64,000 bases of DNA from Gammaproteobacteria bacterium (GTDB taxonomy: Bacteria > Pseudomonadota > Gammaproteobacteria > UBA4575), in the NCBI GenBank assembly GCA_033344735.1, contig JAWPMW010000001.1, positions 1,182,171 through 1,246,170 on the forward strand, read 5' to 3'. The notes under the pieces were generated by a model. The model saw nothing but the letters and a program-made list of their open reading frames with translations, did not search any database and was not told the DNA's origin. The position numbers and the translations under genes are program-made. Of this stretch, positions 11,491-64,000 are shown piece by piece (positions within the stretch are counted from its first letter, which is position 1; every line of letters starts with the position of its first letter).

Positions 11491-11500
11491 GTTGTTAAGC

Positions 11501-12382: not shown

Positions 12383-12412
12383 ATCTAAAACCCTATCTTG
12401 TAAATGTAACTT

Positions 12413-19013: not shown

Positions 19014-19018
19014 ATCAT

Positions 19019-19360: not shown

Positions 19361-19376
19361 TATACAATTTAATGGC

Positions 19377-41700: not shown

Positions 41701-42573
41701 TTAGCTTTTTAGACTCTGTAAATAATCAGTAAAATCACTTCCAATTTCAGCATGTTTCATTCCATACTCAACGGTTGCTTGTAGATAGCCTAGCTTACTT
41801 CCACAGTCATATCGACGACCTTCAAATTCATACGCATAGACTGAACGCTGCTTAATTTGATTGGCAATGGCATCGGTTAATTGAAGTTCGCCACCTGCCC
41901 CTGTATCAGTATTTTCGAGAATTTCAAATATTGATCCATCGAGAATATAACGGCCGACTACAGCTATATTCGAAGGTGCTTGTTCTGGTTTCGGTTTCTC
42001 AACGATGCCAGAGATTCTCCACAAATTATCATTCACCTGATCACCAGAAATAACACCATAGCTCCCTACTGTTTCTTGAGGGACTTTTTGCACGCCAATG
42101 ACACCACTATTCTCGCGCTCGTAGATCTCGACCATCTGTTTTAAACAACCTTTAGAAGAGCTATCAATTAAATCATCTGCCAGAATTACCGCGAATGGCT
42201 CGTTACCCACAACAGGTTTACCGCACAGTACGGCATGCCCCAATCCCAATGCTTCAGCTTGCCTTATATATATACATGAAATGCCGGCAGGAAGGATATT
42301 ACGGACAACATCTAACATAACAGTTTTACCTTTCGTCTCTAGTTCAGCTTCAAGCTCATAGGCTTTATCGAAGTGATCAGGAATTGAGCGCTTACTTCTC
42401 CCTGTAATAAACACCAATTCTTCAATACCTGCTTCAACAGCTTCCTCTGCAGCGTATTGAATTAAAGGTTTATCAACAATCGGTAGCATTTCCTTAGGAT
42501 TCGCTTTAGTAGCAGGTAGAAATCGGGTTCCCATACCAGCAACTGGGAATATGGCTTTGCGAATCTTTTTCAT
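41701..42573 (-). CDS. galU: UTP--glucose-1-phosphate uridylyltransferase
   Basis: Starts [31 protein letters not shown], the GalU nucleotidyltransferase signature. The track ORF extends 25 codons further upstream without homology. Confidence 0.85.
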
Positions 42574-42686
42574 AAATTCATCTCTAAAGTAAATTTTATT
42601 AAATGATGATACCCAATTGATATGACGATATAAACAAAAAGGACCCACAGAATAGTGAGTCCTTTTTTAGCGCATGACTAATAAAG

Positions 42687-50191: not shown

Positions 50192-50866
50192 ATGAAACGT
50201 TTAAAATCTCTAACACAGCAGCTTGGTTATTCATCAACTGCAAGTTATTTGATCTCTACAATGTTAGAAAAATTATTTGGGATCGAAATGCATCATTATC
50301 GATTTTATTCTCAGCCGGTTTATAAAACGCCAAGGGTTCCCACACACAAGCTTAATCGCTACAAATTTAGCTGGCTGAATAAACCAGAAAAAATTCTTGA
50401 TGAATTACAGCGCCCAAAACAAGTGATAGAAAATCGCTTTCAACAAGGCTCTGTCTGCCTGGTTGCAGAACAAAATGGCAAACTTCAAGGGTGCTTATGG
50501 TTAATAAAATCCAAGTACATAGAAGATCAAGTGCGAGCAACATATCATTTCCCTGAAAACGCCGTCTGGGATTACGATGTCTATGTCACACCCAAGAAAC
50601 GCTTTACCATTTTATTTGCCGCACTCTGGGATACCGCAGACACCTGGATGAAAGAACATAATTATGCAAGCAGCCTTAGCAGAATATCCGTAGAAAACGC
50701 TCCATCTATTCGCTCACACGAAACAGCTGGCGCAAAGCAAATTGGATGGATAATTGCAATAGTCATCAAGCATTGGCAAATTACTCTCTCGGACAAATCA
50801 CCAAAACTACATTTCTCCTCAAAAAACAACACTAACGGCCCAGATCTATATTTCACCAAGATTTGA
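50192..50866 (+). CDS. Hypothetical protein, possible GNAT-fold acyltransferase
   Basis: 224 aa, first gene after the core block. There is weak GNAT-like secondary-structure periodicity and no canonical Q/RxxGxG/A motif was found by eye. Family assignment is tentative. Confidence 0.35.
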   Translation: MKRLKSLTQQLGYSSTASYLISTMLEKLFGIEMHHYRFYSQPVYKTPRVPTHKLNRYKFSWLNKPEKILDELQRPKQVIENRFQQGSVCLVAEQNGKLQGCLWLIKSKYIEDQVRATYHFPENAVWDYDVYVTPKKRFTILFAALWDTADTWMKEHNYASSLSRISVENAPSIRSHETAGAKQIGWIIAIVIKHWQITLSDKSPKLHFSSKNNTNGPDLYFTKI

Positions 50867-50940: not shown

Positions 50941-51016
50941 AGGCGCGTAGCTCAGTGGCAGAGCACTGCTATTACTTGGCAGATGCCGGAGGTTCAATTC
51001 CTACCCGCGCCTACCA
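50941..51016 (+). tRNA. tRNA-like gene, probable tRNA-Val (anticodon UAC) with irregular T-arm
   Basis: The 5' 16 nt (AGGCGCGTAGCTCAGT) and the 3' CGCGCCTACCA are identical to the tRNA-Val(GAC) gene in this window. The anticodon arm CTGCT-ATTACTT-GGCAG reads TAC. Manual folding leaves one extra base between T-stem and acceptor stem, a G-A mismatch in the T-stem, and U rather than a purine at position 37. Confidence 0.5.
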
Positions 51017-51050: not shown

Positions 51051-52154
51051 TTATTTGATTCTCTTGTGTAAGCTTTCAACGACACGCTGAGCAGTTGCTC
51101 CGTCCCACAACTCTGGGCACTGACCTTGTTTCCAATCACCGGCCAAAACATTACTAACAGATACTGCGAGTACATCAGGCTTAATCAGCTGATTTGTCCC
51201 GTGAGTAATAGTAATTGGTCGTTCAGTATTCTCTCGCAAGGTAAGACATGGAATACCCAAATACGTCGTTTCTTCTTGAATGCCACCAGAATCAGTAATC
51301 ACAAGTTTTGACTGCGTGACTAGATTCATAAATTGAATATACCCCTGAGGCTCAATCACCAATATATTCGCCGCCTGTTCAAGTCTACTCATCATTCCAA
51401 AGTCTATTAACTTTTGGCGTGTTCTAGGGTGCACTGGGAATACTAATTGGCAATCTTCAGAAACCGCTAACAATTGATTAACAATCTCAGAAAGCGTTTG
51501 TTCGTTATCCACATTCGATGGGCGATGCATAGTTACCACAGCAAATTGATTCGCCATAAGGCCATGACTCTCAGCTGTATTATCATTTTCAATCTCCACA
51601 CGCATCATCTCGAATGAATCGATCATAATATTGCCGACGAGATCTACTTTATTATCATCAACACCTTCATGTTTAAGATTTTCATTTCCATCAATCGATG
51701 GCGTCCAAAGTAAATCTACGATTCTATCTGTAAGTACTCGATTTACTTCCTCTGGCATACGCATATCACCACTACGTAAACCCGCCTCTAAATGTGCAAC
51801 TGGTATCCATAATTTTGCGCCTACAAGCGCACATGCAATGGTGGGATTGACGTCACCCACGACAATGATCCAATCAGGACGATTCTCTATCACTATCTTT
51901 TCATACGCCATCATGACTTTGCCAGTTTGTTCAGCATGTGAACCACTACCCACCTCGAGATGAAAGTCTGGTTTTGGCATTTTCAAATCATCAAAAAATG
52001 CATCTGACATATTGGCATCGTAATGTTGCCCAGTATGTATCAAACTCGGTTTACACCAATCCGTCGCCGCCAACGCATGATACAAAGGCGCAATTTTCAT
52101 AAAATTTGGTCTAGCAGCAGCAATAAGATGGACATTAATCATTTCATTCAACAA
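51051..52154 (-). CDS. wecB: UDP-N-acetylglucosamine 2-epimerase (non-hydrolysing)
   Basis: 367 aa with near-colinear WecB/MnaA similarity (HLIAAARPNFMKIAPL, HTGQHYD, HLEAGLRSGD, PEEVNR). Confidence 0.85.
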   Translation of the reverse strand: MLNEMINVHLIAAARPNFMKIAPLYHALAATDWCKPSLIHTGQHYDANMSDAFFDDLKMPKPDFHLEVGSGSHAEQTGKVMMAYEKIVIENRPDWIIVVGDVNPTIACALVGAKLWIPVAHLEAGLRSGDMRMPEEVNRVLTDRIVDLLWTPSIDGNENLKHEGVDDNKVDLVGNIMIDSFEMMRVEIENDNTAESHGLMANQFAVVTMHRPSNVDNEQTLSEIVNQLLAVSEDCQLVFPVHPRTRQKLIDFGMMSRLEQAANILVIEPQGYIQFMNLVTQSKLVITDSGGIQEETTYLGIPCLTLRENTERPITITHGTNQLIKPDVLAVSVSNVLAGDWKQGQCPELWDGATAQRVVESLHKRIK

Positions 52155-52464
52155 GGGTAGCTAATATGGGAAGGGCTTCGAATTTGTGTCAAGTAGCTGA
52201 CGATACAATTTAACAAATAATATACGACAAATCCTATCCAGTTCTTTAATTGAAGTATCTTCAATACACTTCACATCATGATAGATACACATGACTTATA
52301 ATATTCTAAATAAATACTGCAGCCGAGTTGTGCCGTTTATCGCAATTTTAGGACAAGTAAAGTTTAATCGACTCAAATGACTAATTAATTACACTAATCG
52401 GCGCTACAAGTTTATCTCAAGCCCGCTAAAATTAGCCCCTAAATTAATTTCGAAAATCTTTTCT

Positions 52465-54057
52465 ATGAATTTCCTACTACATTCAGCGCTTTTCAATCAG
52501 GCAATACACCGCCCTGATTCTATCGCCATAGAATACAAACAAGAAAAGATTAGCTACAGGGAGCTAAGCATGCTTGCTTCAGACTTTGCTGGAGGTTACT
52601 CCAATTTGGACTTACCAAAAGGCAGCAGAGTTGGAATTTTTTTAGCTAAACAAGTAGAAACAATTTCTGCCATCTTTGGCACTTTATTAGCGGGCGGCAG
52701 CATCGTCCCTGTCAACCCCATACTAAAAGCCAATCAAATTGAACACATTCTTTGTGATTGTGACGTCAGCATACTTGTCACAACTAAATCTCGTCTTAGA
52801 CAGATTGAAGGTGTAATAGACAATTGTCCAGCACTAAAAACAATAGTCCTAGTTGATCATGATGACTTAATTGATTCCCGCTCTTACCACAAACCTATTT
52901 CGAGCTGGCAAAATTTCTGCCAACAATACAATTCTGAAAAAGCACCAACCATTATTGAATCAGACCTTGCTGCAATTTTTTACACATCGGGTAGCACTGG
53001 AAAACCCAAAGGCGTGGTACTAACACATCACAATATGCATGTTGGCGCACAAAGTGTCGCGCAATATCAGAACAACAATAAACAAGATAGAATTCTAGCA
53101 GTCTTACCTTTTAGCTTTGACTATGGATTTAGTCAAATCACAACGGCCATAGTATCTGGAGCGACGGTTATATTATTAGATTACCTACTACCGAAAGATG
53201 TGATTAAAACTCTTGAGCGTACTAAAGCCACAGGATTAGCCGGCGTGCCTCCTTTATGGATGCAAATCACAAAGCTAGATTGGCCAAACAGCATTAAAGA
53301 TCATTTACGTTACATCACCAACTCTGGCGGAGCAATGCCACAAAGTACTTTATCCATTTTGCAAGAAAAACTGCCAAATACTGACATATATTTAATGTAT
53401 GGCTTAACCGAAGCATTTCGCTCAACATATTTACCGCCTGATCAAGTCAATACTCGCCCTACTTCTATGGGAAAAGCGATACCCAATGCAGAAATATTTG
53501 TTATTAACTCTGAAGGCGAAGAATGCAAGGCTGGCGAAGAAGGTGAATTAGTTCACCGCGGCCCATTAGTTGCACAGGGTTATTGGAATGACCCAGAAAA
53601 AACTTCTGAGCGTTACAAGCCGCTACCATCATCTCTATGTGATGGGCGCACAGTAACAGAACTTGCAGTATGGTCCGGAGATTCTGTTAAGAAAGATGAA
53701 GAAGGTTATCTATATTTTGTTAGCCGTACAGATGAAATGATTAAAACATCTGGCTACCGAGTGAGCCCTACAGAGATTGAAGAGACTCTTTTACTCCTCG
53801 ATAATGTCAGTGAAGCTGTCGCAATGGGTATACCTCACTCAGAACTAGGACAAGCTATTGTAGTCGTAGCCACTAGCAATTCAAAAAGCACAGATTTGGT
53901 AAAAGAAATTACTTCTTCACTCAAAAAACAATTACCACCCTACATGCTGCCACAGAAAATATTCATCCGTGACGAGTTACCTCGCAATGCCAATGGTAAA
54001 TTTGATCGCAAACAGATGTATATCGAATGTGAAAACACGTTTAGCAAATCACAATGA
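52465..54057 (+). CDS. AMP-forming acyl-CoA/acyl-ACP ligase (adenylate-forming enzyme)
   Basis: 530 aa with adenylation core motifs YTSGSTGKPKGV, YGLTEA, GEL...RGP...GY, SGD...DEEGY...R.DE.IKTSGYRVSPTEIE and PRNANGKFDRK. Confidence 0.8.
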   Translation: MNFLLHSALFNQAIHRPDSIAIEYKQEKISYRELSMLASDFAGGYSNLDLPKGSRVGIFLAKQVETISAIFGTLLAGGSIVPVNPILKANQIEHILCDCDVSILVTTKSRLRQIEGVIDNCPALKTIVLVDHDDLIDSRSYHKPISSWQNFCQQYNSEKAPTIIESDLAAIFYTSGSTGKPKGVVLTHHNMHVGAQSVAQYQNNNKQDRILAVLPFSFDYGFSQITTAIVSGATVILLDYLLPKDVIKTLERTKATGLAGVPPLWMQITKLDWPNSIKDHLRYITNSGGAMPQSTLSILQEKLPNTDIYLMYGLTEAFRSTYLPPDQVNTRPTSMGKAIPNAEIFVINSEGEECKAGEEGELVHRGPLVAQGYWNDPEKTSERYKPLPSSLCDGRTVTELAVWSGDSVKKDEEGYLYFVSRTDEMIKTSGYRVSPTEIEETLLLLDNVSEAVAMGIPHSELGQAIVVVATSNSKSTDLVKEITSSLKKQLPPYMLPQKIFIRDELPRNANGKFDRKQMYIECENTFSKSQ

Positions 54058-55289
54058 TTAAAAAAACATTAGAACATCATTCTCCTCTAAACTTCTACAC
54101 TGTAGAAGATCATTGCTTAGTGATAGGAAATCAGAAATTCACTAATATATTGTCACAACATAAAGATGTCCCTGCTTACATCTATGACAGTTCAGTAATC
54201 AAACAGAAAATAGACTCCCTTCGAAAAGTTCTACCTGAATCCATGCATATTCATTATGCAATCAAAGCTAATCCAATGCCTGATGTTGTTAACTATGTAC
54301 AAGGTTTGGTAGAAGGATTGGATGTTGCCTCCGGCTTAGAATTAAAAGTCGCATTAGCTAGCGGCATGGACCCTAAAGAAATTAGCTTTGCCGGCCCCGG
54401 TAAAAGCATTGAAGAATTAACGCTCGCAATTAATAGCGGCATTACAATCAATTTAGAATCAGAAACCGAACTAGATCGCGCTACCATAATTGGCGAGCAA
54501 TTAGGCATAACACCACGCGTTGCTCTTCGCATTAATCCTGATTTTGAACTAAAAACATCAGGCATGAAAATGTCTGGAGGGCCTAAGCAGTTTGGTGTCG
54601 ACGCTGAAATCGCCACGGATATTATTAAAAAAATTCTCGACTATAAATTAGAATTCATAGGGCTTCATATCTTCAGCGGTTCACAAAATTTAAAATATGA
54701 AGCATTAATTGAAGCACAGACAAAGACATTTGCATTAGCCTCAAATCTAGCAGAACAGTCTGGCACAGAATTTTCCAAACTAAACATTGGTGGAGGTTTT
54801 GGTATTCCATATTTCCCAGGTGAAAAGCCACTACCTTTAGAACCAATTGGTGAGAACCTGCATTCTTTACTCGAACAATACGCAAGCCAATTTGGTAACA
54901 CATCAATAATCACAGAGCTGGGACGTTTTATAGTAGGAGAATCAGGCGTATACATATCCAAAGTTATAGATAAGAAAGTTTCACGTGGAAGTACTTTCTT
55001 AATTATCAATGGTGGCTTACATCACCATTTAGCAGCCAGTGGTAATTTTGGGCAAGTTATCCGCAAAAATTATCCTGTGACTGTTGCAAATAAAATTGGC
55101 TTAGAGACAGAAAAGGCTAGCGCTGTTGGCCCACTATGCACACCACTCGATGTCCTAGCACAGGATATGGAATTACCCAAAGCTGAAATAGGTGATTATG
55201 TGGCAGTATTTATCTCAGGCGCATACGGATATACATCCAGCCCGTTAAATTTCTTAAGTCATCCTCATCCGATTGAGATTTTTATTTAG
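54054..55289 (+). CDS. PLP-dependent decarboxylase, Orn/DAP/Arg decarboxylase (fold III) family
   Basis: 411 aa with HYAIKANP (PLP lysine), NIGGGFGIPY, ELGRFIVGESG and GPLCTPLD motifs. Its start overlaps the ligase stop (ATGA). Confidence 0.8.
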   Translation: MIKKTLEHHSPLNFYTVEDHCLVIGNQKFTNILSQHKDVPAYIYDSSVIKQKIDSLRKVLPESMHIHYAIKANPMPDVVNYVQGLVEGLDVASGLELKVALASGMDPKEISFAGPGKSIEELTLAINSGITINLESETELDRATIIGEQLGITPRVALRINPDFELKTSGMKMSGGPKQFGVDAEIATDIIKKILDYKLEFIGLHIFSGSQNLKYEALIEAQTKTFALASNLAEQSGTEFSKLNIGGGFGIPYFPGEKPLPLEPIGENLHSLLEQYASQFGNTSIITELGRFIVGESGVYISKVIDKKVSRGSTFLIINGGLHHHLAASGNFGQVIRKNYPVTVANKIGLETEKASAVGPLCTPLDVLAQDMELPKAEIGDYVAVFISGAYGYTSSPLNFLSHPHPIEIFI

Positions 55290-56164
55290 GAATTTACGAA
55301 ATTTAAAGTAATCTGCTCAACTTCAGATCTTAATTTCCGAGAAGAAAATGTGTGGTCTGCCTCATCTATATAGTGGATAACTGTTTTTGATCTATTAAAT
55401 TCATCAAGCAGCCAATCATTTTCATCTAGCATTTGCTTAAATTCATCAGCAACTAAATCTTTACCACTAAGAATCAAGCAAATAGACCCATTAAAATTTG
55501 ACATTCCTCTAAACACTGCTTCTGCAATATTTTCTTCTCTATCGGCAATAGGTATTACCTGATGCGCATCAAATTTTGATTTGTTGGACCTGCTACTTAA
55601 GATCTTAAAAACTATATTACCCAAAGAAAATATCGCTTTTGATATCTTACTTGGCGACAATAATAATTGCTTCCATACTTCGATGCTAAACAAGCGCTCG
55701 CGATAGTAACTATGCAGAATGGCTTTAGAGTGACTCGTCTCACTCCTAACCCATGGATTCAATAATACAACACCTTTAATGCGATCATCAGTGTAGGCAG
55801 TAAATGAAATTGCAGCGGCGGCATCACACAACCCCCATAGATAAACTTCATCTAAATTACACTCATGATTAAAAACAAAATCTATTGCCACTTTGACATC
55901 ATCATCAATTTCATAGAACTGTTTAGAGATTCCCTGACTATAGCCCATGCCAGTATAATCAAACCTGAGCGCTAAAATTCCTTGTGCAGCTAAGCATCTT
56001 GCCAAAAGTGCAAATTGTCGATGACTGCCAACTCTATACTGAGGACCACCCACAACAATAATAACTGCAGCCTTTGCTTCTACTTCAGGAACCGATAAGA
56101 TGCCATATAGATCGCGCCCATTCATCGAAAAGCTTACTGGTTTTTCGAAATAACTCTGACTCAT
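55286..56164 (-). CDS. Alpha/beta-hydrolase-fold protein 1 (dienelactone-hydrolase-like)
   Basis: 292 aa with an IIVVGGPQY...FDYTGMGYSQG region and the candidate nucleophile elbow LWGLCDAAA. Its stop overlaps the decarboxylase stop convergently by 3 nt. Confidence 0.65.
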   Translation of the reverse strand: MSQSYFEKPVSFSMNGRDLYGILSVPEVEAKAAVIIVVGGPQYRVGSHRQFALLARCLAAQGILALRFDYTGMGYSQGISKQFYEIDDDVKVAIDFVFNHECNLDEVYLWGLCDAAAAISFTAYTDDRIKGVVLLNPWVRSETSHSKAILHSYYRERLFSIEVWKQLLLSPSKISKAIFSLGNIVFKILSSRSNKSKFDAHQVIPIADREENIAEAVFRGMSNFNGSICLILSGKDLVADEFKQMLDENDWLLDEFNRSKTVIHYIDEADHTFSSRKLRSEVEQITLNFVNS

Positions 56165-57003
56165 TACGCAAACACCCGCTTAGTTTCGCGCAACAATATC
56201 GGCGATATCGTGACTTCTTGTTGCATCCAAAATTTAACATCATTTACTGCATGCAAAGACAATTTTGCTAATAAATGCTCGTCGAGTTTAGACTTTGACA
56301 AACATATTGGTAACTGTGTTTTAGTGCCGTTTATAGATTTGCCAGTCGTCATCCAGTGCAGATCAGTTAAGGAAAGCACAGCTTGTATATAATCGTTAAT
56401 GTTTTTTGATTTGATTGTATTGAGCAACTCCGATGAAATATGATAACCACCTACCTCTAAAAAGCCAGATCCCTCTATTTCTTCCAAGACCTCTTTAGTA
56501 GTAATTTTTTTCAAATCTCCGGCCATTGCGGCTGCAATTTTCATGCGAATTAATTGTCGAACTAATGCTTCCCCGTTATCAACGGGATCCCACAAAACAC
56601 ATTTATTGATTTGAATATCTGATTGCTCAATCAAATTAAGAGAAATTAACGCACTATCACGCAAGCACACTAAGCTAATTTTTGAAGCAAATTTTTCAGA
56701 TAATTTATAAATATCAAGTAGATTATTTTTCCAAGCATCATAATTAAACTCCCCCCATTCTCCTGAACTGTCGCCAGTGCCTGCAAAATCAAAGCATATT
56801 GAATGGATGCCTGCATCTGCTAATAAACGCGCGCATAGTACATACATTCTTTTTGAACGATTCATTTCCTCGGCAAAGGGAGGCACAAATATGACAACCT
56901 GGGCGTCCCGCACAGCTGCACTTTGCTCGAATGGAGCATAGTGCGCTAAGAATATTTGGGAATTTTGACTTGAAGGAAGGAATTGGAAATCAGTTGTGTG
57001 CAA
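56164..57003 (-). CDS. Alpha/beta-hydrolase-fold protein 2
   Basis: 279 aa paralogous in architecture to the upstream gene (VIFVPPF...FDFAGTGDSSG...LVCLRDSAL). It shares 1 nt with the start/stop of the adjacent gene. Confidence 0.6.
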   Translation of the reverse strand: MHTTDFQFLPSSQNSQIFLAHYAPFEQSAAVRDAQVVIFVPPFAEEMNRSKRMYVLCARLLADAGIHSICFDFAGTGDSSGEWGEFNYDAWKNNLLDIYKLSEKFASKISLVCLRDSALISLNLIEQSDIQINKCVLWDPVDNGEALVRQLIRMKIAAAMAGDLKKITTKEVLEEIEGSGFLEVGGYHISSELLNTIKSKNINDYIQAVLSLTDLHWMTTGKSINGTKTQLPICLSKSKLDEHLLAKLSLHAVNDVKFWMQQEVTISPILLRETKRVFA

Positions 57004-57005
57004 CC

Positions 57006-57257
57006 TTAGTTTTCCATTTTTGCGACTATTTGATTTCGCAGTGTTCCTACTGTTTCGAACACTTCAGCATCTAATTCATCATCATCAAAGACAATGCCGA
57101 AGCGATCTTCTATTGAGGTAATAATGCCAACTATTGCCATGGAATCTAACTCAGGAATGGCTCCAAGTAATGGCGCCTCTTCACTCATTTGATGTATCTG
57201 AGCGGCACCATCTAGCGATTCTGCCAACACATCTAGCACTTGTTCTAGTTCAACCAT
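57006..57257 (-). CDS. Acyl carrier protein
   Basis: 83 aa acidic four-helix protein with a phosphopantetheine-attachment motif (LGAIPELDSMAIVGI). It lies 2 nt upstream of hydrolase 2. Confidence 0.7.
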   Translation of the reverse strand: MVELEQVLDVLAESLDGAAQIHQMSEEAPLLGAIPELDSMAIVGIITSIEDRFGIVFDDDELDAEVFETVGTLRNQIVAKMEN

Positions 57258-57282
57258 ATTTAAATCTAACCAAATTACAGAA

Positions 57283-57969
57283 TTAATTTGCTATGTTTTG
57301 AGAAACAGTCTTATCCCAAACACCTTTTCTAATCAATTTATTTTTCAATCCAGGCAAAGGATACCCTAGCTCATAAGCTCTATGCCCATGCTTAACCGCC
57401 ATACTTAAATGATTAGTATCCACATAATATAATCCAAAATTATAATGAGCCTCAGCTGAATCTGGATTTATCTCGAGCGCCTTTTGGTATTGCATTTTCG
57501 CCTTACCAAGACTTCCCTTACGATGAAGATAAGTTGCGTATATTAAACGCACAATACCATCATTTGGTTTGAAAACTATAGCACGATTAAAGAAACATTC
57601 TACAGAAATTGAATCACCCATTTTTTCAATTGCATTTTCAACCTGAAACTCATACTTAGATATTGAAGTTAACGCTCTATGATGATTTGGGAACACTCTT
57701 AACACATACTCCAAGTCACCATAAACACTACTAGTCTTACCTTTAACCAAAGACTCAACATCAGTATCAAAGTGGTGATACTCAACTAAATAGCCATGTT
57801 CCTTATAAACATTATAGTCAGTATAATCAAATGGCCCATGGTGGTTATCTAGACTTCCACATGCTCCTCCACCCAAACCTTGCTCCTCATTTGCAACCGC
57901 AGATTGCAAATAAAATAGTGCAACCAATAACACTAAGATAGTAGAAGTGTACTTATATTTCATTGCCAA
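57283..57969 (-). CDS. Secreted His-rich protein with C-terminal TPR repeats
   Basis: 228 aa with a signal peptide (…LQSAVA|NEE). Histidine-rich middle region (HHGPFDY, EYHHFD, FPNHHRA). TPR-like helices at AKMQYQKALEINPDSAEAHYNFGLYY. No family recognised. Confidence 0.5.
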   Translation of the reverse strand: MAMKYKYTSTILVLLVALFYLQSAVANEEQGLGGGACGSLDNHHGPFDYTDYNVYKEHGYLVEYHHFDTDVESLVKGKTSSVYGDLEYVLRVFPNHHRALTSISKYEFQVENAIEKMGDSISVECFFNRAIVFKPNDGIVRLIYATYLHRKGSLGKAKMQYQKALEINPDSAEAHYNFGLYYVDTNHLSMAVKHGHRAYELGYPLPGLKNKLIRKGVWDKTVSQNIAN

Positions 57970-58303
57970 GCCTCTTTTAAACTGTTGTTTCGCAATTATA
58001 AAGCTTTAAGCCACTCCGTTCATCGACCTAGGCCCTAGCTTAAGCATTTATAGCGTGAATTCCATCAAATTATCAGCAAAAATGACGCTATTACACAGCC
58101 AATCAATTCACTGATTATTTATATTTAATATTCACTGGCAATCTAACAAACATGGCCCCATACAATCTAATAATGTGTCACACTTCAGACAAATTCCACT
58201 AACAGAACTCAAGCTTTCAGGGACCGCCTCTTTCTCTCTAATCATCATATATTAGAATAGACTCAGCAATTTATCGTTCAACTTAATCGCATAAAATTAC
58301 TAG

Positions 58304-60136
58304 ATGAAACAATTTATCTTTACTGGATGGACTGTCAACAATGCTGATCAGGACTCTAAATTATTAGGCCATCTTGACAATTCTGAAAACAAAATTTCTC
58401 AGTCAAAAATAGATCAGTGGAATCACTCAGCTGCCTGGACATCCCCTAGCGAGCTAGTAATCCACCACAAATTTGATGACATTACCCTCAGCTTATGTGG
58501 CAGACCTACGATTAGCATTAACGATGATGGATCATTTCAAACCATAAAAACTGAACATCAACTAAATGGGCTGGTACAAGAATACAAGAAACATGGATAT
58601 CATTTTCTCAGAAAACTAAATGGTAGTTTCTCATTAATTTTATTCGATGCACGCAAACATATAACTATATTAGCTGTCGATCGCATGGGCATAGAGCAAA
58701 TGCATTATGCGACTATTTCTGGTGGTTTATTTTTTAGTAGCTCTCTAAAATCTTTAAGCAATTTACCAAGCATTCCTAAAAATATTTTTCCGCAATCTGT
58801 TTACAATTATTTTTACTTTCACTGTATTCCAAGTCCCAATACTATTTTCCAGGATTTATACAAGTTAAAGCCTGCCGAGGTATTGATCTTTAAAAATGGA
58901 TCAAGCTCTAAAGATACATACTGGACACCGGAATTTAATGAAAAACTCTCAACATCTGTAGACACTCTCCAATCTGATGTAAGAGAATCATTAGACTCAA
59001 CAATGCGAGAATTATCTGCAGATCCTAAGACAGGAGCATTCTTAAGCGGTGGTACAGATAGTTCTACACTCTCTGGGTTATTAAAAAAACATCACCCTAC
59101 AGACGCACCTGCTTTCTCTATTGGCTTTGAAGAACAAGGTTATGACGAAATGGGATTCGCTGATATAGCGGTCAATAAATTTCAAAACAAGCATTATAAG
59201 TATTATGTCAATTTTGACGATGTCCTAAAGCTATTCAACGAAATACCTAAAATATACGAAGAGCCTTTTGGAAACTCATCAGTCGTTCCAACATTTGCTG
59301 CTGCACAATTAGCAAAGAAAAATGGTGTTGACCATATGATTGGTGGCGATGGTGGTGATGAAATTTTTGGCGGTAACGATCGCTATGCCACACAAAAATT
59401 ATTTAACATTTATAGCTCTGTACCAAAATGGGTGCGCGAAATCATTCTTGAACCAAGCTTTTGCAATTCAGTCGCAGGCTCATTACCCATCGCTAAGAAA
59501 GCAAAGAGCTATATTGAACAAGCAAAAATTTCTATGCCTAAACGTATGCAAACATACAATATATTGCATATGCAGCAACCCAGTTCGATATTCGACAGCC
59601 ATTATCTTGGAGAAATTAATAGCAATTACCCCATAGATTTATTAAGTGAAACTTACAACGAAATACAGGATGCTTCACTATTAAATAAAATGTTGTACTT
59701 AGACTGGAAATTTACCCTGGCTGATAATGACTTGCGTAAAGTAAATACCATGTGTCGTGCAGCTGGCGTCGAAGTTTCATATCCGTTTTTAGATAATCGA
59801 GTTGTGGAAAGCTCGACAAAAGTGCCTTCCAAACTTAAGATCAAAGGAATGAGATTACGCGCATTCTACAAAGACACTTACAGTTCCTTACTACCTCCAG
59901 AAATAATCACTAAATCCAAGCACGGGTTTGGCTTGCCATTTGGAGTATGGCTGAAGAAAGATAGCCGCTTACAAAATGAAGTCTATGGCGCACTAACAAA
60001 TCTAAAAACAAGATCTATGTTTCAAGATAAATTCATTGATGATTTAATTGAAAAGCACCGCTCTGAACACGCGGCTTATTATGGAACATTTGTCTGGGTC
60101 TTAGCAGTGCTAGAGCGCTGGTTAGACGCTCAATAA
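58304..60136 (+). CDS. Asparagine synthetase-family amide synthetase lacking the N-terminal catalytic Cys
   Basis: 610 aa with the PP-loop SGGTDSS and an AsnB synthetase domain. A degenerate glutaminase-like N-domain is present, but the protein starts MKQF (no Cys2), and an in-frame TAG lies immediately 5' of the ATG. Confidence 0.8.
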   Translation: MKQFIFTGWTVNNADQDSKLLGHLDNSENKISQSKIDQWNHSAAWTSPSELVIHHKFDDITLSLCGRPTISINDDGSFQTIKTEHQLNGLVQEYKKHGYHFLRKLNGSFSLILFDARKHITILAVDRMGIEQMHYATISGGLFFSSSLKSLSNLPSIPKNIFPQSVYNYFYFHCIPSPNTIFQDLYKLKPAEVLIFKNGSSSKDTYWTPEFNEKLSTSVDTLQSDVRESLDSTMRELSADPKTGAFLSGGTDSSTLSGLLKKHHPTDAPAFSIGFEEQGYDEMGFADIAVNKFQNKHYKYYVNFDDVLKLFNEIPKIYEEPFGNSSVVPTFAAAQLAKKNGVDHMIGGDGGDEIFGGNDRYATQKLFNIYSSVPKWVREIILEPSFCNSVAGSLPIAKKAKSYIEQAKISMPKRMQTYNILHMQQPSSIFDSHYLGEINSNYPIDLLSETYNEIQDASLLNKMLYLDWKFTLADNDLRKVNTMCRAAGVEVSYPFLDNRVVESSTKVPSKLKIKGMRLRAFYKDTYSSLLPPEIITKSKHGFGLPFGVWLKKDSRLQNEVYGALTNLKTRSMFQDKFIDDLIEKHRSEHAAYYGTFVWVLAVLERWLDAQ

Positions 60137-60217
60137 TTCTTACACTCTTCTATTTTAAACGCCATAATTAGCTTTAAGTAAACTTTAGCTACAATGGCAA
60201 TACTCGAATTAAAGCAA

Positions 60218-61528
60218 CTATTTAGTTATCGCCATATTCATAGCAGGCAACATTTTACCGCCTGAATTTACAGGCAACTCAGTTTCTTGCATTCGCCGCT
60301 TGTGGAGCAACGTCGACATGGCTATACCGATACCTATCAGTGCGTACAGCAAATCAAACTTTGCCATCTCCAAGAACAACCCGGCAACCATATAACCAAC
60401 GATACTTACTTGAATCATCGCGGCCAAATCTCGCATCCAAATCATATCCTCATATTTAGGCGCAGTTTTTATGATATATCCCATAGTGCGATATAAAACT
60501 ATCAGTAACATTGTGAAGATAATAAGCCCCACCCATCCATGCTCACCCAATGACTCAAAATAAATACTATGCGGGCCAGCCCATTGCACTTCAGGTCTCT
60601 CAGAGTACTTATTAAATAACTCCTCTGTAAAAGTACTATAGCCACCGCCAAATATAGGATAATCATTAGCAAGATTGATTGAAAACTCCCAAGCATTAAT
60701 TCTCATCATTGCTGATTCATCTTCTTGATAGTTTTTAATCGTATCCATTCGATCATGCCAACTCTGTGGCATAAATACAAAGAGCAATGGTGCAAGAATA
60801 ATAACAACTGCTGCCACTTTAAACTTTGCTTTGCTTTTCATAACTAAGAAACCAGTCATTGCTATCAATGCTAGGAACCCACCTCTTGATTGGGTACCCA
60901 AAATCGCAAACGCAGTCAATATCATCAGCATCAGCGACGAATGCCTAAATAGTTTCTTTTCTGCCTGCGTATGTAGATACCACATCAATGGAAGCACCAT
61001 TACTAGTGCAAGACTAAGTGCATTGTTATCAGCGATAAAAGATTCTGAAGGACCCCAAACACGGAAAGCCCCAGCATTCACAAGGGTGAATATACCTCCC
61101 TTGAGACCAAAATAACCTAAAGAAAGTGCAATTGTTGCAACCAAGGCATTAACTTTATTTTTATCACTTACCATAAATATCATTAACGCAACCATAGTAA
61201 TAATCTTTAAAAAGTTAACCCATTGCGCCATAGCCTCTTCTGGATAAATTGCCATGCTTGTAGTAATGGAAACCCATCCGGCATATAAAATCAGCATCCA
61301 CAGTAGCCCGGAACCTTTAGGCATGATTTTATCTTTATAATATAGAAAGGCAATTATCGTAATTAGGCCAATCATTTTTGAAAATGGGAAATCATACGCA
61401 AACCCAAAACAAAGTCTGTGAGGATTCATAAAACCCAACCAACTCCATACTAAAATGCCCACATAAGGTCTGAACAAAATGAATGGAATGAAACCAAAAA
61501 CGATTAAAGTTAGCAGTATATCTCGCAT
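60218..61528 (-). CDS. Wzy/O-antigen-ligase-like polytopic membrane protein
   Basis: 436 aa with ~10-12 hydrophobic helices and a larger periplasmic loop, the architecture of the O-antigen ligase/polymerase (Wzy_C) family. Confidence 0.6.
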   Translation of the reverse strand: MRDILLTLIVFGFIPFILFRPYVGILVWSWLGFMNPHRLCFGFAYDFPFSKMIGLITIIAFLYYKDKIMPKGSGLLWMLILYAGWVSITTSMAIYPEEAMAQWVNFLKIITMVALMIFMVSDKNKVNALVATIALSLGYFGLKGGIFTLVNAGAFRVWGPSESFIADNNALSLALVMVLPLMWYLHTQAEKKLFRHSSLMLMILTAFAILGTQSRGGFLALIAMTGFLVMKSKAKFKVAAVVIILAPLLFVFMPQSWHDRMDTIKNYQEDESAMMRINAWEFSINLANDYPIFGGGYSTFTEELFNKYSERPEVQWAGPHSIYFESLGEHGWVGLIIFTMLLIVLYRTMGYIIKTAPKYEDMIWMRDLAAMIQVSIVGYMVAGLFLEMAKFDLLYALIGIGIAMSTLLHKRRMQETELPVNSGGKMLPAMNMAITK

Positions 61529-61553
61529 TGTATTCTCAACTTTTCATACTTAA

Positions 61554-62522
61554 TTAATTAGCGTACTGCACATAGCCGCGCGCCAAAGAAACACCAAATT
61601 TAAATTTGCTCGTATGGTCAATGCTAATTCTAGGTAGATCAAACATACCCATACTCTTATCTATAACACCATTATTTGTCGTTAATGCCGCATTAAAACC
61701 GGCCTCCTCAACAAACTGCATGTGTCGTTCATCATAATCCTTATCGGCTTGCCCATTAGGGTAAGCAAAAAACTTTAACTTCTTATTTAATATATTTTCT
61801 AAGTACAACTTACCTTCAACAATTTCCTGTCGCACTTCATCTTCGTCCGCACAAGTCATAATAGGATGATTAACAGTATGTCCACCAATCTCCATGCCGG
61901 CATTTGATAGTGCTTTTACTTCATCTTCTGTCATCATTAAACGCTCAGATAATTCAACTTCAGCAAGCTGCCTTAATCGATCAACTAATTCTATGCGTCG
62001 ACTAACACTGTTATATTTAATATAACCAAGCAATTTTTCTATTAGCTGTAATTTCTTCAATTCAGTATTTATTGAAACCTTACCCAAGGAAAACTCATGC
62101 AAATCCAGCTCTCTAAATGAGGTATATTTAATTGTCTGTCTAACAACATCATTCCACATCACACCATCACCCAAGTATCCAGTAGCAATAAAAAACGTAG
62201 CGTGTAAATTTAATGCTGACAAAATTGGTAAGGCAACATCATAATTATCACGATAACCATCATCAAATGTCACGCATACAGAGCCAGCTGGTAATGTTCC
62301 TTGTCGCATTTGTTCCAAACCAGACTCTAAACTGACAACATTAAAGTACTCCGCCAAAGTTTCCATTTGCCGAGTAAACTGAACTGAATCAACCTCATCT
62401 ATTACAGGATCATAGTCTGCAAGCACACGGTGATAGGTAAGCACCAGCAATTTATTATTTGCTCGATGACCTGATAATGCTCCCACTGTCTGCTGGAAAA
62501 TTGGCCTTAATACTCTGTTCAC
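61554..62522 (-). CDS. NodB-type polysaccharide deacetylase
   Basis: 322 aa with NodB motif 1 TFDDGYRDNYD and a His motif GGHTVNHP. Confidence 0.8.
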   Translation of the reverse strand: MNRVLRPIFQQTVGALSGHRANNKLLVLTYHRVLADYDPVIDEVDSVQFTRQMETLAEYFNVVSLESGLEQMRQGTLPAGSVCVTFDDGYRDNYDVALPILSALNLHATFFIATGYLGDGVMWNDVVRQTIKYTSFRELDLHEFSLGKVSINTELKKLQLIEKLLGYIKYNSVSRRIELVDRLRQLAEVELSERLMMTEDEVKALSNAGMEIGGHTVNHPIMTCADEDEVRQEIVEGKLYLENILNKKLKFFAYPNGQADKDYDERHMQFVEEAGFNAALTTNNGVIDKSMGMFDLPRISIDHTSKFKFGVSLARGYVQYAN

Positions 62523-62602
62523 TGCTTAACTTTACCTCAATCTAAACTGAGCAATTACCAAACTCGTCTCAGATTTGCTATCTCAAAAATTAGTGGACGA
62601 GT

Positions 62603-63829
62603 TCACACTTTTACAAAAGTTGCATGTCTATCTTGCGCTTTCTTATATAAATCCACATAACCAAAAACACTCTTCTTCCAATTACGCTCAGCTTTCACAT
62701 ACTTTCGTGCCCAGCCAGAAAATAAGGCTTTCAATGGCTTATTAGCTACTGTTGACTGTAAAGCATCTGATAAGGCCTCAACCGATCCCGCATCAAATAA
62801 AACCGAATGAAGCCGCTCTGGCAACAGCTCTACATGACCTCCCACATTTGACGCAATAAATACCTTGCCCATTGCCATAGCCTCTAGAGGTTTTAATGGC
62901 GTAACAATATCCGTAAGTCGTGCTGGTTTACGTGGATAAACCAGCACATCAATTAAGTCATAATAAGCTTCTACCTCAGAATGTGGCACGCGACCGGTGA
63001 ATATAATTTTGTCTTGCATGCCCAACTCACTTACTAAGTCACGCAGTTTTTCATCCTCAGGTCCACCACCAACGAGTAAACCCTTAACATTTAAATCACT
63101 ATCGCGCATTGCATGTAGCGCTTTTACAAATAGCTCCAAACCCTCATATGCGTAAAAGGAACCAATAAACCCTGCAACATAACTATTCCCTAGCTTATAT
63201 TTTTCACGCAAATTTTCTTGAATAGTAGACTCACCTTCAAACTCCTCTGCATTAACCGCATTAGGAATCACCTGTATAGGCGTCTGACCAATACTTCTAC
63301 TGGTAATATCATTTTTTAATCCATTACAGATAGTCGTTATCCCATGCACTCTTTTAAACACAAACGTTTCTAATGCACGTGTTAAACGATAACGAAAACT
63401 ACCCTCAGTTGTAGTGCCATGTTCAACTGCAGCATCTTCCCAAGATGCACGCATTTCATATACAACAGGAATAGAAAATTTCTTGGCCGCATTTATTGCC
63501 GCAATGCCATTCAGACATGGAGAATGCGCATGAATAATATCTGGCTTCTCACGTTCAATTACATCAGTCACACGTTTTTGCAAACTGCTAATCACATACA
63601 ACTGATTAATAATTGGAATTCTTGACAGCAATTTATTCTTATCTTCTGTTCTGTAAAATTTCAGATTGTCATGCACCTCCTCATCTCCCTGAGGATTTAT
63701 ATGTTTAATACCAGTAACATGCGTGGTTTCCCAGCCTAGCTTGGCTTGTTCATTAAGAATAGAACAAGTACGAAACGTGTACCCGCTATGCAGAGGTATA
63801 GAATGATCTAATACATGTAATATTTTCAT
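62603..63829 (-). CDS. GT4-family glycosyltransferase (GT-B fold)
   Basis: 408 aa with a C-terminal EAMAMGKVFIASNVGGHVELL nucleotide-sugar binding region typical of GT4/RfaG-like enzymes. Confidence 0.8.
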   Translation of the reverse strand: MKILHVLDHSIPLHSGYTFRTCSILNEQAKLGWETTHVTGIKHINPQGDEEVHDNLKFYRTEDKNKLLSRIPIINQLYVISSLQKRVTDVIEREKPDIIHAHSPCLNGIAAINAAKKFSIPVVYEMRASWEDAAVEHGTTTEGSFRYRLTRALETFVFKRVHGITTICNGLKNDITSRSIGQTPIQVIPNAVNAEEFEGESTIQENLREKYKLGNSYVAGFIGSFYAYEGLELFVKALHAMRDSDLNVKGLLVGGGPEDEKLRDLVSELGMQDKIIFTGRVPHSEVEAYYDLIDVLVYPRKPARLTDIVTPLKPLEAMAMGKVFIASNVGGHVELLPERLHSVLFDAGSVEALSDALQSTVANKPLKALFSGWARKYVKAERNWKKSVFGYVDLYKKAQDRHATFVKV

Positions 63830-63841
63830 AATCGCTTTAAT

Positions 63842-64000
63842 CTAAATATGATTTTCTTGAATGCGTGTATTAGCAACATCAATATCAGCTATCTGCTGAT
63901 CAAGTAAATTGGCATCCATTTTTTCCATTGCAATGTCCCAACCATGGTGAGACAACATACGTGATCTTCCTGCCTGAGAAAGCCTTATTCTCTCTTCAGC
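63842..64000 (-). CDS. 3' end (C-terminal ~52 aa) of another polysaccharide-locus gene, possibly a glycosyltransferase; truncated by window edge
   Basis: Minus-strand frame is open from the window edge to the stop at 63842-63844 (…HGWDIAMEKMDANLLDQQIADIDVANTRIQENHI*). Confidence 0.35.
   Translation of the reverse strand, partial: AEERIRLSQAGRSRMLSHHGWDIAMEKMDANLLDQQIADIDVANTRIQENHI

Follow-up and report, generated by a model that had tools for sequence, protein, structure and literature searches.

A probable XrtA/PEP-CTERM-type exopolysaccharide locus between serC and pheA, without an exosortase gene in its cluster

A run of surface-polysaccharide genes occupies the end of the gammaproteobacterial DNA analysed here (64,000 nucleotides, called the window), which raises the question of what kind of locus they form and whether it is an accessory element. 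In a sequence-only reading the segment 51051-64000 had been taken for an accessory cluster behind 50 kb of housekeeping genes. The description of the upstream part holds, as the 20 genes sampled from 1-50 kb were all housekeeping genes (BamA, RseP, GlnD, MnmC, PheT, ThrS, UvrB, aspartate aminotransferase, GalU, PyrF, CysM, AcpS, PdxJ, RecO, Era, RNase III, LepB and DapE) or had no family match (2 of the 20). Profile matches also confirmed every gene class it had named between 51051 and 64000, where 12 intact surface-polysaccharide genes were found. With a probability of about 0.8, we regard this segment as the pheA-proximal half of a ~26-kb, 21-gene exopolysaccharide (EPS) locus of the XrtA/PEP-CTERM type that was inserted, became fixed and lost its exosortase-PrsT pair. 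The genes for sugar supply, transfer and polymer handling in the window are:

51051..52154, minus strand: WecB, a non-hydrolysing UDP-GlcNAc 2-epimerase yielding UDP-ManNAc (TIGR00236, 301.5 bits; cut-off 210)
58304..60136, plus strand: AsnB-like (asparagine-synthase-like) amide synthetase (PF00733, 235 bits)
60218..61528, minus strand: Wzy_C/O-antigen-ligase-like membrane protein (TIGR03097, 455 bits; cut-off 188)
61554..62522, minus strand: NodB-fold polysaccharide deacetylase (PF01522, 87 bits)
62603..63829, minus strand: GT4 glycosyltransferase stp3 (TIGR04063, 545.7 bits; cut-off 442)
63842..64000, minus strand: stp1-type GT4, C-terminal 52 codons, cut by the window edge (81% identity to the end of the L086 gene)

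TIGR03097 is named 'putative O-glycosylation ligase, exosortase A system-associated'. The protein matching it, with further matches to PF04932 and DUF5935 and eight predicted membrane segments, is a candidate polymerase or ligase. The NodB-type deacetylase differs from the XrtA deacetylase TIGR03006 and its IcaB- and PgaB-like matches stay below cut-off; a homologue is present in 32 of the 37 stp3-anchored loci with full 10-kb flanks on both sides. The AsnB-like protein has only a partial GATase domain (TIGR03108, 292 bits against 817, the alignment beginning at profile position 95) and lacks the N-terminal catalytic cysteine, since it starts with MKQFIFTGW and not MCG. L001-L007 share this Cys-less form with nine further stp3-anchored loci, and a canonical MCG-type paralogue is present besides it in several of them. 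The stp1 fragment matched TIGR03087 weakly, and its full-length orthologue in L003 reached 440 bits against 317.

Between WecB and the AsnB-like gene lies a cassette built around a carrier protein:

52465..54057, plus strand: AMP-forming stand-alone adenylating ligase (TIGR03098, 718.5 bits; cut-off 592)
54054..55289, plus strand: PLP-dependent decarboxylase, BtrK type (TIGR03099, 555 bits; cut-off 478)
55286..56164, minus strand: alpha/beta hydrolase 1, exosortase A system-associated (TIGR03100, 256.5 bits; cut-off 168)
56164..57003, minus strand: alpha/beta hydrolase 2, exosortase A system-associated type (TIGR03101, 167 bits, below 202.75)
57006..57257, minus strand: small acyl/peptidyl carrier protein, ACP (PF00550, 21.0 bits; cut-off 20.8)
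57283..57969, minus strand: small TPR protein (TPR_11 and TPR_17 matches)

Although TIGR03098 bears the name 'acyl-CoA ligase, exosortase A system-associated', the best PDB matches of the ligase were NRPS adenylation domains, 3wvn (a stand-alone enzyme of 541 aa that was deposited under the name 'non-ribosomal peptide synthetase'), beta-aminoacyl-ACP synthetases and DltA, and its predicted role is to charge the ACP with an amino acid. The ligase and decarboxylase genes share 4 nt at their stop and start. The top PDB match of the decarboxylase was BtrK (7ru7, L-glutamyl-[BtrI ACP] decarboxylase) with 257 bits over residues 31-410, compared to 180 bits for the best diaminopimelate decarboxylase. 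In this respect ligase, ACP and decarboxylase resemble BtrK-type chemistry, in which the amino acid is bound to a carrier. The ACP showed weak AsbD, DltC and ACP matches, has its phosphopantetheine-site serine in the motif LDSM and is the best-conserved gene of the locus (87-99% identity across the clade). Hydrolase 1, with weak PDB matches to S33/alpha-beta hydrolases, is a candidate acyl-transfer or release enzyme; hydrolase 2 also had weak PDB matches and is 46-73% identical in relatives. The gene heading the TPR-ACP-hydrolase 2-hydrolase 1 unit encodes a protein with the hydrophobic N-terminus MAMKYKYTSTILVLLVALFYLQSAVA, which reads like a signal peptide.

The window stops at 64000, and the remaining locus was read from relatives, the closest being L086 with 86.6% DNA identity; the amino acid identity of stp3 is 96% to L086 and 78-91% to L001-L007. 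The cluster had been expected to run on past the edge, as the cut stp1 gene and the relatives' continuation bear out. In the closest relatives (stp3 78-96%) the genes past this point are those for the glycosyltransferase stp1, for a FemAB-like protein and for the deacetylase of the XrtA type, followed by those for an outer-membrane protein, a tyrosine kinase, a chain-length determinant and a Wza-like exporter. At the far end, EpsB_2 (the priming transferase) is joined by a dehydrogenase of the TviB type and an epimerase, and then comes serC-gyrA. L002, L003, L004 and L007 agree in their gene order all the way from EpsB_2 to the ligase. The left end in L081, L084 and L086 reads gyrA, serC, epimerase, dehydrogenase, EpsB_2, with the identities of serC and the TviB-type enzyme confirmed. 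As the cluster ends at serC-gyrA in relatives, it splits the string gyrA-serC-pheA.

Five window proteins scored above NCBIfam curated cut-offs for exosortase-A-associated families (TIGR03098, 03099, 03100, 03097 and 04063), and seven more families did so in the L003 continuation (TIGR03013, 03027, 03007, 03016, 03006, 03019 and 03087), which supports the earlier impression of an XrtA/PEP-CTERM-associated EPS locus. This kind of locus includes the Zoogloea zooglan cluster. Hydrolase 2, the AsnB-like protein and the tyrosine kinase (TIGR03018 in the L003 continuation) fall below their family cut-offs and were counted against this assignment. The alternative already raised in the sequence-only reading is an LPS O-antigen or capsule locus that has only the cassette in common with XrtA loci. 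Such a locus would fit the lack of an exosortase, the O-antigen-ligase-like (PF04932) membrane protein and a dehydrogenase of the Vi-capsule TviB type; moreover, the O-antigen cluster of Pseudomonas aeruginosa sits in the rpsA-ihfB neighbourhood. We consider it very improbable, since twelve XrtA/PEP-CTERM-associated families exceed their cut-offs locus-wide, among them those of priming transferase, exporter and chain-length determinant, and since L085 and L168, two sister-lineage loci that occupy the same site in the chromosome, contain XrtA-EpsI.

Two items between pheA and WecB had been overlooked before:

50192..50866, plus strand: weak GNAT-like ORF at the variable pheA/locus junction
50941..51016, plus strand: tRNA-Val(TAC), the boundary of the locus on its pheA side

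Acetyltransferase matches of the ORF were all sub-threshold (PF00583, 20.1 bits against 20.7; NCBIfam matches weak) and a metagenome scan returned zero relatives. L093 has a counterpart with 49% identity, L090 has none and L088 carries an Acetyltransf_6 protein instead; the ORF probably does not belong to the core of the locus. The tRNA was called by ARAGORN and scored 39.8 bits with Rfam RF00005; WecB lies 35 nt from its 3' end.

A tRNA-Val gene also adjoins WecB in L088, L090 (both anticodon TAC) and L093 (CAC), and no tRNA was found in the serC-pheA interval of 16 outgroup loci. A tRNA exactly at the boundary, its 3' end pointing toward the locus, would suit a recently acquired, strain-variable island, as the term accessory had implied. 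Distant relatives also lack the locus and have gyrA-serC-pheA intact, and the content between tRNA-Val and pheA varies. L090 has an extra insert, and L088 has a large deletion that removed most of the locus and left a C-terminal fragment of the TPR protein at its joint. Nevertheless, GC3 was 0.321 both inside and outside the locus (Mann-Whitney p = 0.63), so the composition is not foreign. No version of the locus contains an integrase or transposase, and the tRNA 3' end is not repeated at the far boundary. All three relatives with PheA identity of at least 72% and upstream sequence (L088, L090 and L093) have the locus at the serC-pheA site. In the pheA-anchored scan, WecB (78-82% identity, same position), ligase and decarboxylase lie upstream of pheA in these three (PheA 72-78%), whereas gyrA-serC-pheA or gyrA-pheA are directly joined in all ~50 loci with PheA of at most 64%. 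Position and order are kept across this clade of uncultured Gammaproteobacteria, down to 72% identity in PheA and 71% in EpsB_2. Divergence is similar to that of housekeeping genes, with 72-78% identity to L093 for ligase, decarboxylase and WecB compared to 65-72% for pheA, tyrA and aroA. Judged by the refutation rule that the sequence-only reading had set, the accessory label did not survive these comparisons, and a recent island is very unlikely; relative to distant Gammaproteobacteria the locus is an old, fixed, clade-specific insertion.

That the missing parts would lie beyond 64000 turned out to be only partly correct. The export components do, since every close relative has the Wza-like exporter there, together with the chain-length determinant and the tyrosine kinase. 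Neither XrtA, EpsI, a PrsT-like protein, a two-component pair nor a PEP-CTERM protein was found in the ~26-kb locus of any clade relative, and the locus has no Wzx flippase either, which leaves a Wzy-dependent scheme incomplete as encoded. The one unusual feature of the locus is that none of the close relatives examined has the exosortase gene in the cluster. XrtA-EpsI occurs in 33 of 80 stp3-anchored loci (verified in L077 and L009), in none of L001-L007 and not in the window. In the sister-lineage loci L085 and L168, which share the gyrA-serC flank, XrtA-EpsI and a large TPR protein (PrsT-like in L168, 224 bits against a cut-off of 312) directly follow EpsB_2, before the exporter gene. A loss of XrtA is favoured over a gain by parsimony, considering the two sister loci, four further contig-length matches and the fact that such loci generally have XrtA.

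The exosortase system might instead be split, with XrtA/EpsI, PEP-CTERM substrates and PrsK/PrsR/PrsT encoded elsewhere on the chromosome and the locus working like a Zoogloea-type system. We give this somewhat less than an even chance. It would fit the retained, intact XrtA-specific accessory families (TIGR03016 outer-membrane protein, FemAB-like TIGR03019, TIGR03097-03100). There are also XrtA loci elsewhere, such as Nitrosomonas L037, L064, L069 and L074, in which XrtA is not encoded within 10 kb of stp3. Furthermore, EpsH was present in every genome marked PEP-CTERM-positive and in none marked negative (Haft 2006, PMC1569441). However, the fixed place of XrtA and its adjacent TPR gene after EpsB_2 in L085 and L168 corresponds to a clean gap with no remnant in the window clade, and neither the 64-kb window nor L001-L007 showed a PEP-CTERM tail. 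A tblastn search of the window clade with L085 XrtA gave zero matches even at E = 10. In the protein database, members of this XrtA subfamily were on sister-lineage contigs only, which equal sister EpsB_2 contigs in length, despite 26 EpsB_2 clusters of the window clade, some on megabase contigs; the limited reach of these searches, which did not return L085's own XrtA, makes this weak evidence.

For the EPS locus favoured here, WecB, the TviB-type UDP-GlcNAc 6-dehydrogenase and the epimerase would provide the donors of N-acetyl-hexosamine and N-acetyl-hexosaminuronic acid. EpsB_2 would prime undecaprenyl phosphate, the GT4 enzymes stp1 and stp3 would extend the repeat unit and the Wzy_C-like protein would polymerise or ligate it, with export via the chain-length determinant, tyrosine kinase, Wza-like exporter and TIGR03016 outer-membrane protein. 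Two deacetylases, the FemAB-like protein and the Cys-less AsnB-like amide synthetase may modify the polymer. The ligase may charge the ACP with an acidic amino acid, and on this carrier the BtrK-like decarboxylase would convert it to an omega-amino acyl group, e.g. GABA or beta-alanyl, which either alpha/beta hydrolase could then move or release to the polymer or another acceptor. Ligase, decarboxylase and ACP are intact in L088, where the EPS machinery is deleted, and the role of the cassette may thus not be tied to the polymer. The locus would have entered between serC and pheA in the clade ancestor and been fixed since, and the exosortase-PrsT pair would have left it later, either relocated or lost outright. 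If the system is split, sorted PEP-CTERM proteins would anchor or organise the polysaccharide.

Judged by its enzyme families, the segment from position 51051 to the end of the window is a locus of the XrtA/PEP-CTERM-associated exopolysaccharide (EPS) kind, a system that was defined bioinformatically by Haft et al. 2006 (PMC1569441). We combined an ORF map of 46-64 kb with profile searches (NCBIfam cut-offs, Pfam) and recovered every gene class that the sequence-only reading had named. The genes are given below with profile scores in bits against the cut-off of the family.

51051-52154, minus strand: WecB (TIGR00236, 301 against 210)
52465-54057, plus strand: AMP-forming ligase (TIGR03098, 718 against 592)
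54054-55289, plus strand: PLP decarboxylase (TIGR03099, 555 against 478), 4-nt overlap with the ligase stop
55286-56164, minus strand: hydrolase 1 (TIGR03100, 256 against 168)
56164-57003, minus strand: hydrolase 2 (TIGR03101, 167 against 203, below the cut-off)
57006-57257, minus strand: carrier protein (ACP) of 83 aa with an LDSM serine
57283-57969, minus strand: TPR protein of 228 aa with a hydrophobic, signal-peptide-like N-terminus
58304-60136, plus strand: AsnB-like protein, starting MKQFIFTGW and devoid of the Cys nucleophile of the glutaminase domain
60218-61528, minus strand: Wzy_C/O-ligase-like protein (TIGR03097, 455 against 188; PF04932)
61554-62522, minus strand: NodB-fold deacetylase, adjoining stp3
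62603-63829, minus strand: GT4 glycosyltransferase stp3 (TIGR04063, 546 against 442)
63842-64000, minus strand: cut gene, C-terminus of a stp1-type GT4 glycosyltransferase

The exosortase-A-associated markers TIGR03098, TIGR03099, TIGR03100, TIGR03097 and TIGR04063 exceeded their curated cut-offs, and the XrtA/PEP-CTERM-type assignment thus holds at the gene-family level. The description of the preceding 50 kb as housekeeping was likewise sound, as 18 of 20 sampled genes were standard housekeeping genes (BamA, RseP, GlnD, MnmC, PheT, ThrS, UvrB, aspartate aminotransferase, GalU, PyrF, CysM, AcpS, PdxJ, RecO, Era, RNase III, LepB and DapE). The two genes without a family match (20520-21299, minus strand, 259 aa, and 28408-28869, minus strand, 153 aa) found no NCBIfam match at E = 1e-10. 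GalU, a UTP-glucose-1-phosphate uridylyltransferase (41701-42648, minus strand), lies in the housekeeping block near tRNA-Asn (41482-41557) and about 9 kb off the locus, with pyrF, rpsA, cmk, aroA, tyrA and pheA in between; it may supply UDP-glucose. Scans for promoters (46, with 47.3 expected) and terminators (9, with 9.2 expected) stayed at background, and tRNA was the sole match in the Rfam search.

That the cluster runs on past the window edge was seen in the syntenic loci of relatives. A scan of species-representative genomes with stp3 led to a clade of uncultured Gammaproteobacteria (loci L001-L007) with 78-91% identical proteins; closer still is the metagenome contig L086, with a 96% identical stp3 protein and 86.6% DNA identity over the last 1.5 kb of the window. 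L001-L007 and L086 have kept the order of the window from ligase to stp3. Beyond the position of 64000 the relatives continue as follows.

Next (L003): stp1 (TIGR03087) and a FemAB-like protein (TIGR03019), both above cut-off
Then (L003): XrtA-type deacetylase (TIGR03006) and outer-membrane protein (TIGR03016), both above cut-off
Then (L003): tyrosine kinase (TIGR03018, 189 against 231, below cut-off) and chain-length determinant (TIGR03007, above cut-off)
Then (L003): Wza-like exporter (TIGR03027) and priming transferase EpsB_2 (TIGR03013), both above cut-off
Further out (L081, L084, L086): TviB-type UDP-GlcNAc 6-dehydrogenase (673 bits against 592) and NAD-dependent epimerase
Outer flank after the epimerase: serC, gyrA, mtnA, amidohydrolase, methyltransferase and HAD hydrolase

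The same gene order as in L003 was found in L002, L004, L007, L081, L084 and L086. Since the continuation in the relatives reaches serC, the full locus comprises about 26 kb and about 21 genes. Export components, which the window lacks, do lie beyond 64000 in the relatives, namely the exporter, the chain-length determinant and the kinase.

The segment had been regarded as an accessory locus. So as not to pick only carriers of the locus, we used the core gene pheA as the anchor of a metagenome scan and mapped the neighbouring genes by tblastn. WecB, ligase and decarboxylase were found upstream of pheA in all three relatives with a PheA identity of at least 72% and available upstream sequence (L088, L090, L093); in about 50 of about 50 loci with a PheA identity of at most 64% the order was gyrA-serC-pheA or directly gyrA-pheA, and the locus was absent. 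Anchoring on EpsB_2 revealed the junction of serC with epimerase, dehydrogenase and EpsB_2 in L081, L084 and L086. The much more remote loci L085 and L168 of a sister lineage, with an EpsB_2 of only 51-54% identity, have this serC junction too. GC3 did not differ between 10 locus genes and 49 upstream genes (0.321 in either set; Mann-Whitney p = 0.63), and the overall GC of 0.386 in the locus versus 0.403 upstream is inside the range of single core genes. Identities to L093 were 72-78% for ligase, decarboxylase and WecB and 65-72% for pheA, tyrA and aroA.

A tRNA-Val(TAC) gene, which had been overlooked, is located between pheA and WecB (50941-51016, plus strand), 35 nt from the WecB stop. tRNA-Val also adjoins WecB in each of the three clade relatives that reach the junction (L088 7011-7086, L090 9196-9271, L093 8868-8943), with the anticodon CAC instead of TAC in L093, and 16 outgroup loci had no tRNA in the serC-pheA interval. 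For a mobile island integrated at a tRNA, the tRNA at the boundary is present, whereas integrase, direct repeat, deviant composition and variable presence were not observed: no version of the locus contained an integrase (the region of L081, L084 and L086 included), the far boundary had no att-like copy of the 3' end of tRNA-Val beyond chance matches of 9-11 nt, and loss among the relatives was limited to a deletion in L088. Because of the conserved site, the core-like GC3 and divergence, and the lack of an integrase and of a far-end repeat, the locus is best read as an old insertion in the gyrA-serC-pheA string that was then inherited with the chromosome, and not as a strain-variable island.

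The gene between tRNA-Val and pheA varies among the relatives. In the window it is a weak GNAT-like ORF (50192-50866, plus strand), also overlooked before, which had only sub-threshold family matches and for which the metagenome scan gave no relatives. L093 carries a 49% identical copy, L090 has none, and L088 encodes a 309-aa Acetyltransf_6 protein instead. Craig et al. are said to have linked N-acyl amino acid synthases to exosortase loci in 2011; the GNAT-like ORF was considered as an enzyme of this type and dropped, as it showed no significant similarity to any named family.

Two relatives have modified versions of the locus. In L090, hydrolase 1 and the decarboxylase are pushed apart by an insert of about 3.5 kb (1354-4918). 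It encodes a 430-aa GT4, an Acetyltransf_6 protein, an ORF of 109 aa and two successive ORFs (180 and 234 aa) which resemble the halves of a single split gene. Of this GT4, 97 aa are left in L088, a decayed version of the locus (1-8400, JGI contig Ga0181580_10002392). Here EpsB_2 breaks off after codon 219 (the part left is 74% identical to protein P0001) and is directly followed by the C-terminal portion of the TPR gene, which puts the deletion at about 17-20 kb. Besides, hydrolases 1 and 2 are gone and WecB is broken into two ORFs; ACP (93% identical), decarboxylase (80%) and ligase (74%) are all intact.

The genes that give this kind of locus its name were searched for separately. Two ORFs of another locus (L037), first taken for XrtA and EpsI, had no family matches, and XrtA was then located by screening multi-pass membrane ORFs. 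XrtA-EpsI fusion proteins were verified in L077 (Zoogloea) and L009. A phmmer search with verified XrtA proteins detected homologues in 33 of 80 stp3-anchored loci and none in the window or in L001-L007. The XrtA of L085, the nearest one available, found nothing as tblastn query even at E = 10 in the window, L001-L007 and the L081-L086 loci of the window clade. In L085 and L168, XrtA-EpsI (510-515 aa) directly follows EpsB_2 and precedes a TPR protein of 577-672 aa and the exporter gene. The TPR protein of L168 is PrsT-like (TIGR02917, 224 bits against a cut-off of 312). In the window clade only an intergenic gap of about 300 nt separates EpsB_2 and the exporter. An exosortase just past 64000, one of the two options raised before, is thus at odds with the close relatives, which have none in their locus and show this short gap where the sister loci carry XrtA-EpsI. 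Moreover, neither a PrsK/PrsR pair nor PrsT was found in the window or the full locus of relatives (Pfam lists, L081, L084, L086); the 228-aa TPR protein of the window reached 18.7 bits with the PrsT model. No ORF of the window or L001-L007 was found to end in a PEP-CTERM tail; such 'PEP' strings as occurred were chance matches in non-coding frames.

An XrtA of the clade was also sought in large protein collections by a single-sequence search, a subfamily profile, an exhaustive search of cluster representatives and cluster look-ups, and all four returned sister-lineage proteins only. The word-indexed search returned neither the XrtA of L085 itself (11465-13012) nor a close copy of it, its best match being 43% identical, and negatives from that database are therefore weak. 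The XrtA subfamily of L085 is small, with scores falling from more than 700 bits to about 300 or less for the next proteins; P0128, the best match outside the subfamily, lies in a separate XrtA locus with different neighbour genes (L167). No subfamily member lay on a contig of the window clade, of which the same collection holds 26 EpsB_2 clusters, some on contigs of 0.3-2.4 Mb. In L085, the TIGR03016-like outer-membrane protein is present as two ORFs (18442-19826, 272 and 195 aa), which could reflect a frameshift or an assembly error; it is intact in L168 (472 aa).

Taken together, the sequence comparisons suggest that the vertically inherited XrtA is gone from the clade. An XrtA of another type may sit elsewhere in the genome. 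Further-reaching is the reading that the whole clade has lost exosortase, PrsT-like protein and PEP-CTERM substrates while nearly all other exosortase-A-associated genes, including the TIGR03016 outer-membrane protein, the FemAB-like protein and the cassette of ligase, ACP, decarboxylase and hydrolases, were kept under purifying selection; we give this clade-wide loss roughly one chance in three. The locus itself is a member of an already known kind, and the probable loss of the exosortase-PrsT pair from it is its mild twist.

The closest described systems are the zooglan EPS clusters of Zoogloea resiniphila and Aquincola tertiaricarbonis. These XrtA/PEP-CTERM clusters are required for floc formation, with genetic support for epsB2, prsT, prsK and the PEP-CTERM proteins; floc formation needs the PEP-CTERM proteins and in A. 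tertiaricarbonis also prsT and prsK (PMC9850573; epsSMASH preprint). The zooglan and window-clade loci have in common EpsB2 (TIGR03013), stp1, stp3, AsnB-type enzymes, a FemAB-like protein, an O-ligase-like protein, the XrtA deacetylase and, beside stp3, a NodB-type deacetylase. Between the Zoogloea loci L054 and L077 and the window clade, stp3, stp1, FemAB, deacetylase, NodB, O-ligase and tyrosine kinase are 36-58% identical. In contrast to the Zoogloea-type loci, which have an XrtA-EpsI fusion a few kb from stp3, the window-clade locus has none, and the PEP-CTERM proteins, prsT and prsK of the zooglan system are missing as well. Furthermore, the window clade kept only the Cys-less AsnB paralogue and has the cassette directly beside the transferases. 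The sister loci L085 and L168, also from uncultured Gammaproteobacteria, share the site and left end with the window clade (methyltransferase, amidohydrolase, mtnA, gyrA, serC, epimerase, dehydrogenase, EpsB_2) as well as the order of exporter, chain-length determinant, kinase, outer-membrane protein and Wzy_C-like gene, but differ from it by XrtA-EpsI and the TPR protein after EpsB_2. The methanolan eps cluster of Methylobacillus sp. 12S, from which the names EpsH and EpsB derive, is another large Wzy-type EPS cluster. Its genes encode the founding exosortase together with a Wza-like exporter, a polyprenyl-phosphate sugar transferase and a chain-length determinant with kinase (PMC1569441). 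However, it represents a distinct NCBIfam type (EpsE, EpsF and EpsG models), and the proteins of the relatives scored far below those cut-offs and above the XrtA-type ones.

Going by family membership, the polymer would be built on an assembly line of the Wzy type. N-acetyl-hexosamines and their uronic acids would come from WecB, the TviB-type dehydrogenase and the epimerase, EpsB_2 would prime the lipid carrier, and stp1 and stp3 would lengthen the repeat unit, which the Wzy_C-like protein may polymerise or ligate. Export is predicted to involve the chain-length determinant, the kinase, the Wza-like protein and the TIGR03016 outer-membrane protein, with two deacetylases and the FemAB-like protein as putative modifiers. 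A Wzx flippase was not encoded in the locus according to the membrane-ORF screen of L002, L003, L004 and L007, where the ORFs of at least 150 aa with at least six predicted membrane segments were the Wzy_C-like protein and, in L002 and L003, also EpsB_2. A MOP flippase is present in another XrtA locus (L008); the window clade may have its flippase gene at a different site in the genome.

For the families TIGR03098-03101 we found no experimental work in the literature searched. The closest solved relative of the decarboxylase was BtrK, with 257 bits over residues 31-410 compared to 180 bits for the best diaminopimelate decarboxylase. The ligase resembled NRPS adenylation domains, 3wvn, which we take to be VinN, beta-aminoacyl-ACP synthetases and DltA (PDB matches). 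Ligase and decarboxylase are translationally coupled via the 4-nt overlap, and the ACP carries the DSM serine. As for BtrK/VinO-type systems, the decarboxylase is nearer to BtrK than to free-substrate enzymes and lies next to a carrier and its loading enzyme. The cassette shares this logic of adenylating enzyme, carrier and fold-type-III PLP decarboxylase with the butirosin (BtrI/BtrJ/BtrK) and macrolactam (VinN/VinL/VinO) pathways, in which the amino acid is decarboxylated in situ on the carrier protein; BtrK acts on glutamate held by BtrI. BtrJ is an ATP-grasp enzyme and not an adenylate-forming ligase. Whereas the Btr and Vin pathways build antibiotic side chains or polyketide starters, the cassette described here sits in a polysaccharide locus and has two alpha/beta hydrolases and no PKS, NRPS or BtrH-type transferase.

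Since the decarboxylase is nearest to BtrK and the ligase is adenylation-domain-like, we propose by analogy that the ligase would load an acidic amino acid on the ACP, that the decarboxylase would turn it, still bound to the carrier, into an omega-amino acyl group, and that a hydrolase-fold enzyme would hand this group on. In conservation the ACP is well ahead of every other gene of the locus, with 87-99% identity among relatives compared to 46-73% for the adjacent hydrolases. The Cys-less form of AsnB was also found in L001-L007 and in nine other stp3-anchored loci and forms a distinct subfamily; several of these nine loci additionally encode a canonical MCG-type amidotransferase, which is absent in the window clade. 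As the AsnB-like enzyme lacks the N-terminal Cys needed for glutamine use, we speculate that it joins a uronic acid with an amine other than glutamine-derived ammonia. A possible outcome is a polymer decorated with the carrier-derived omega-amino acyl group via this amide synthetase. Against a role of the cassette tied to EPS, ligase, decarboxylase and ACP stayed intact in L088 when the genes for EPS assembly were lost.

Systems of the XrtA/PEP-CTERM type are common among bacteria from the environment and from wastewater, and have been linked to the formation of flocs and biofilms. Our analysis describes a well-delimited cluster of the XrtA type, apparently inserted in the conserved gyrA-serC-pheA string and vertically inherited. 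Its lineage no longer has exosortase and PrsT-like genes at their ancestral place, whereas all else is kept. For the cassette it provides a testable hypothesis, namely BtrK-like decarboxylation of a carrier-held amino acid. If XrtA sits elsewhere in the genome, the result amounts to routine annotation only. If the lineage is truly without any exosortase, polysaccharide synthesis would be separated from protein sorting. A true clade-wide loss would mean that the associated families act for the polysaccharide and not in the sorting of proteins, and the clade would offer a natural exosortase-minus background to dissect the contribution of XrtA.
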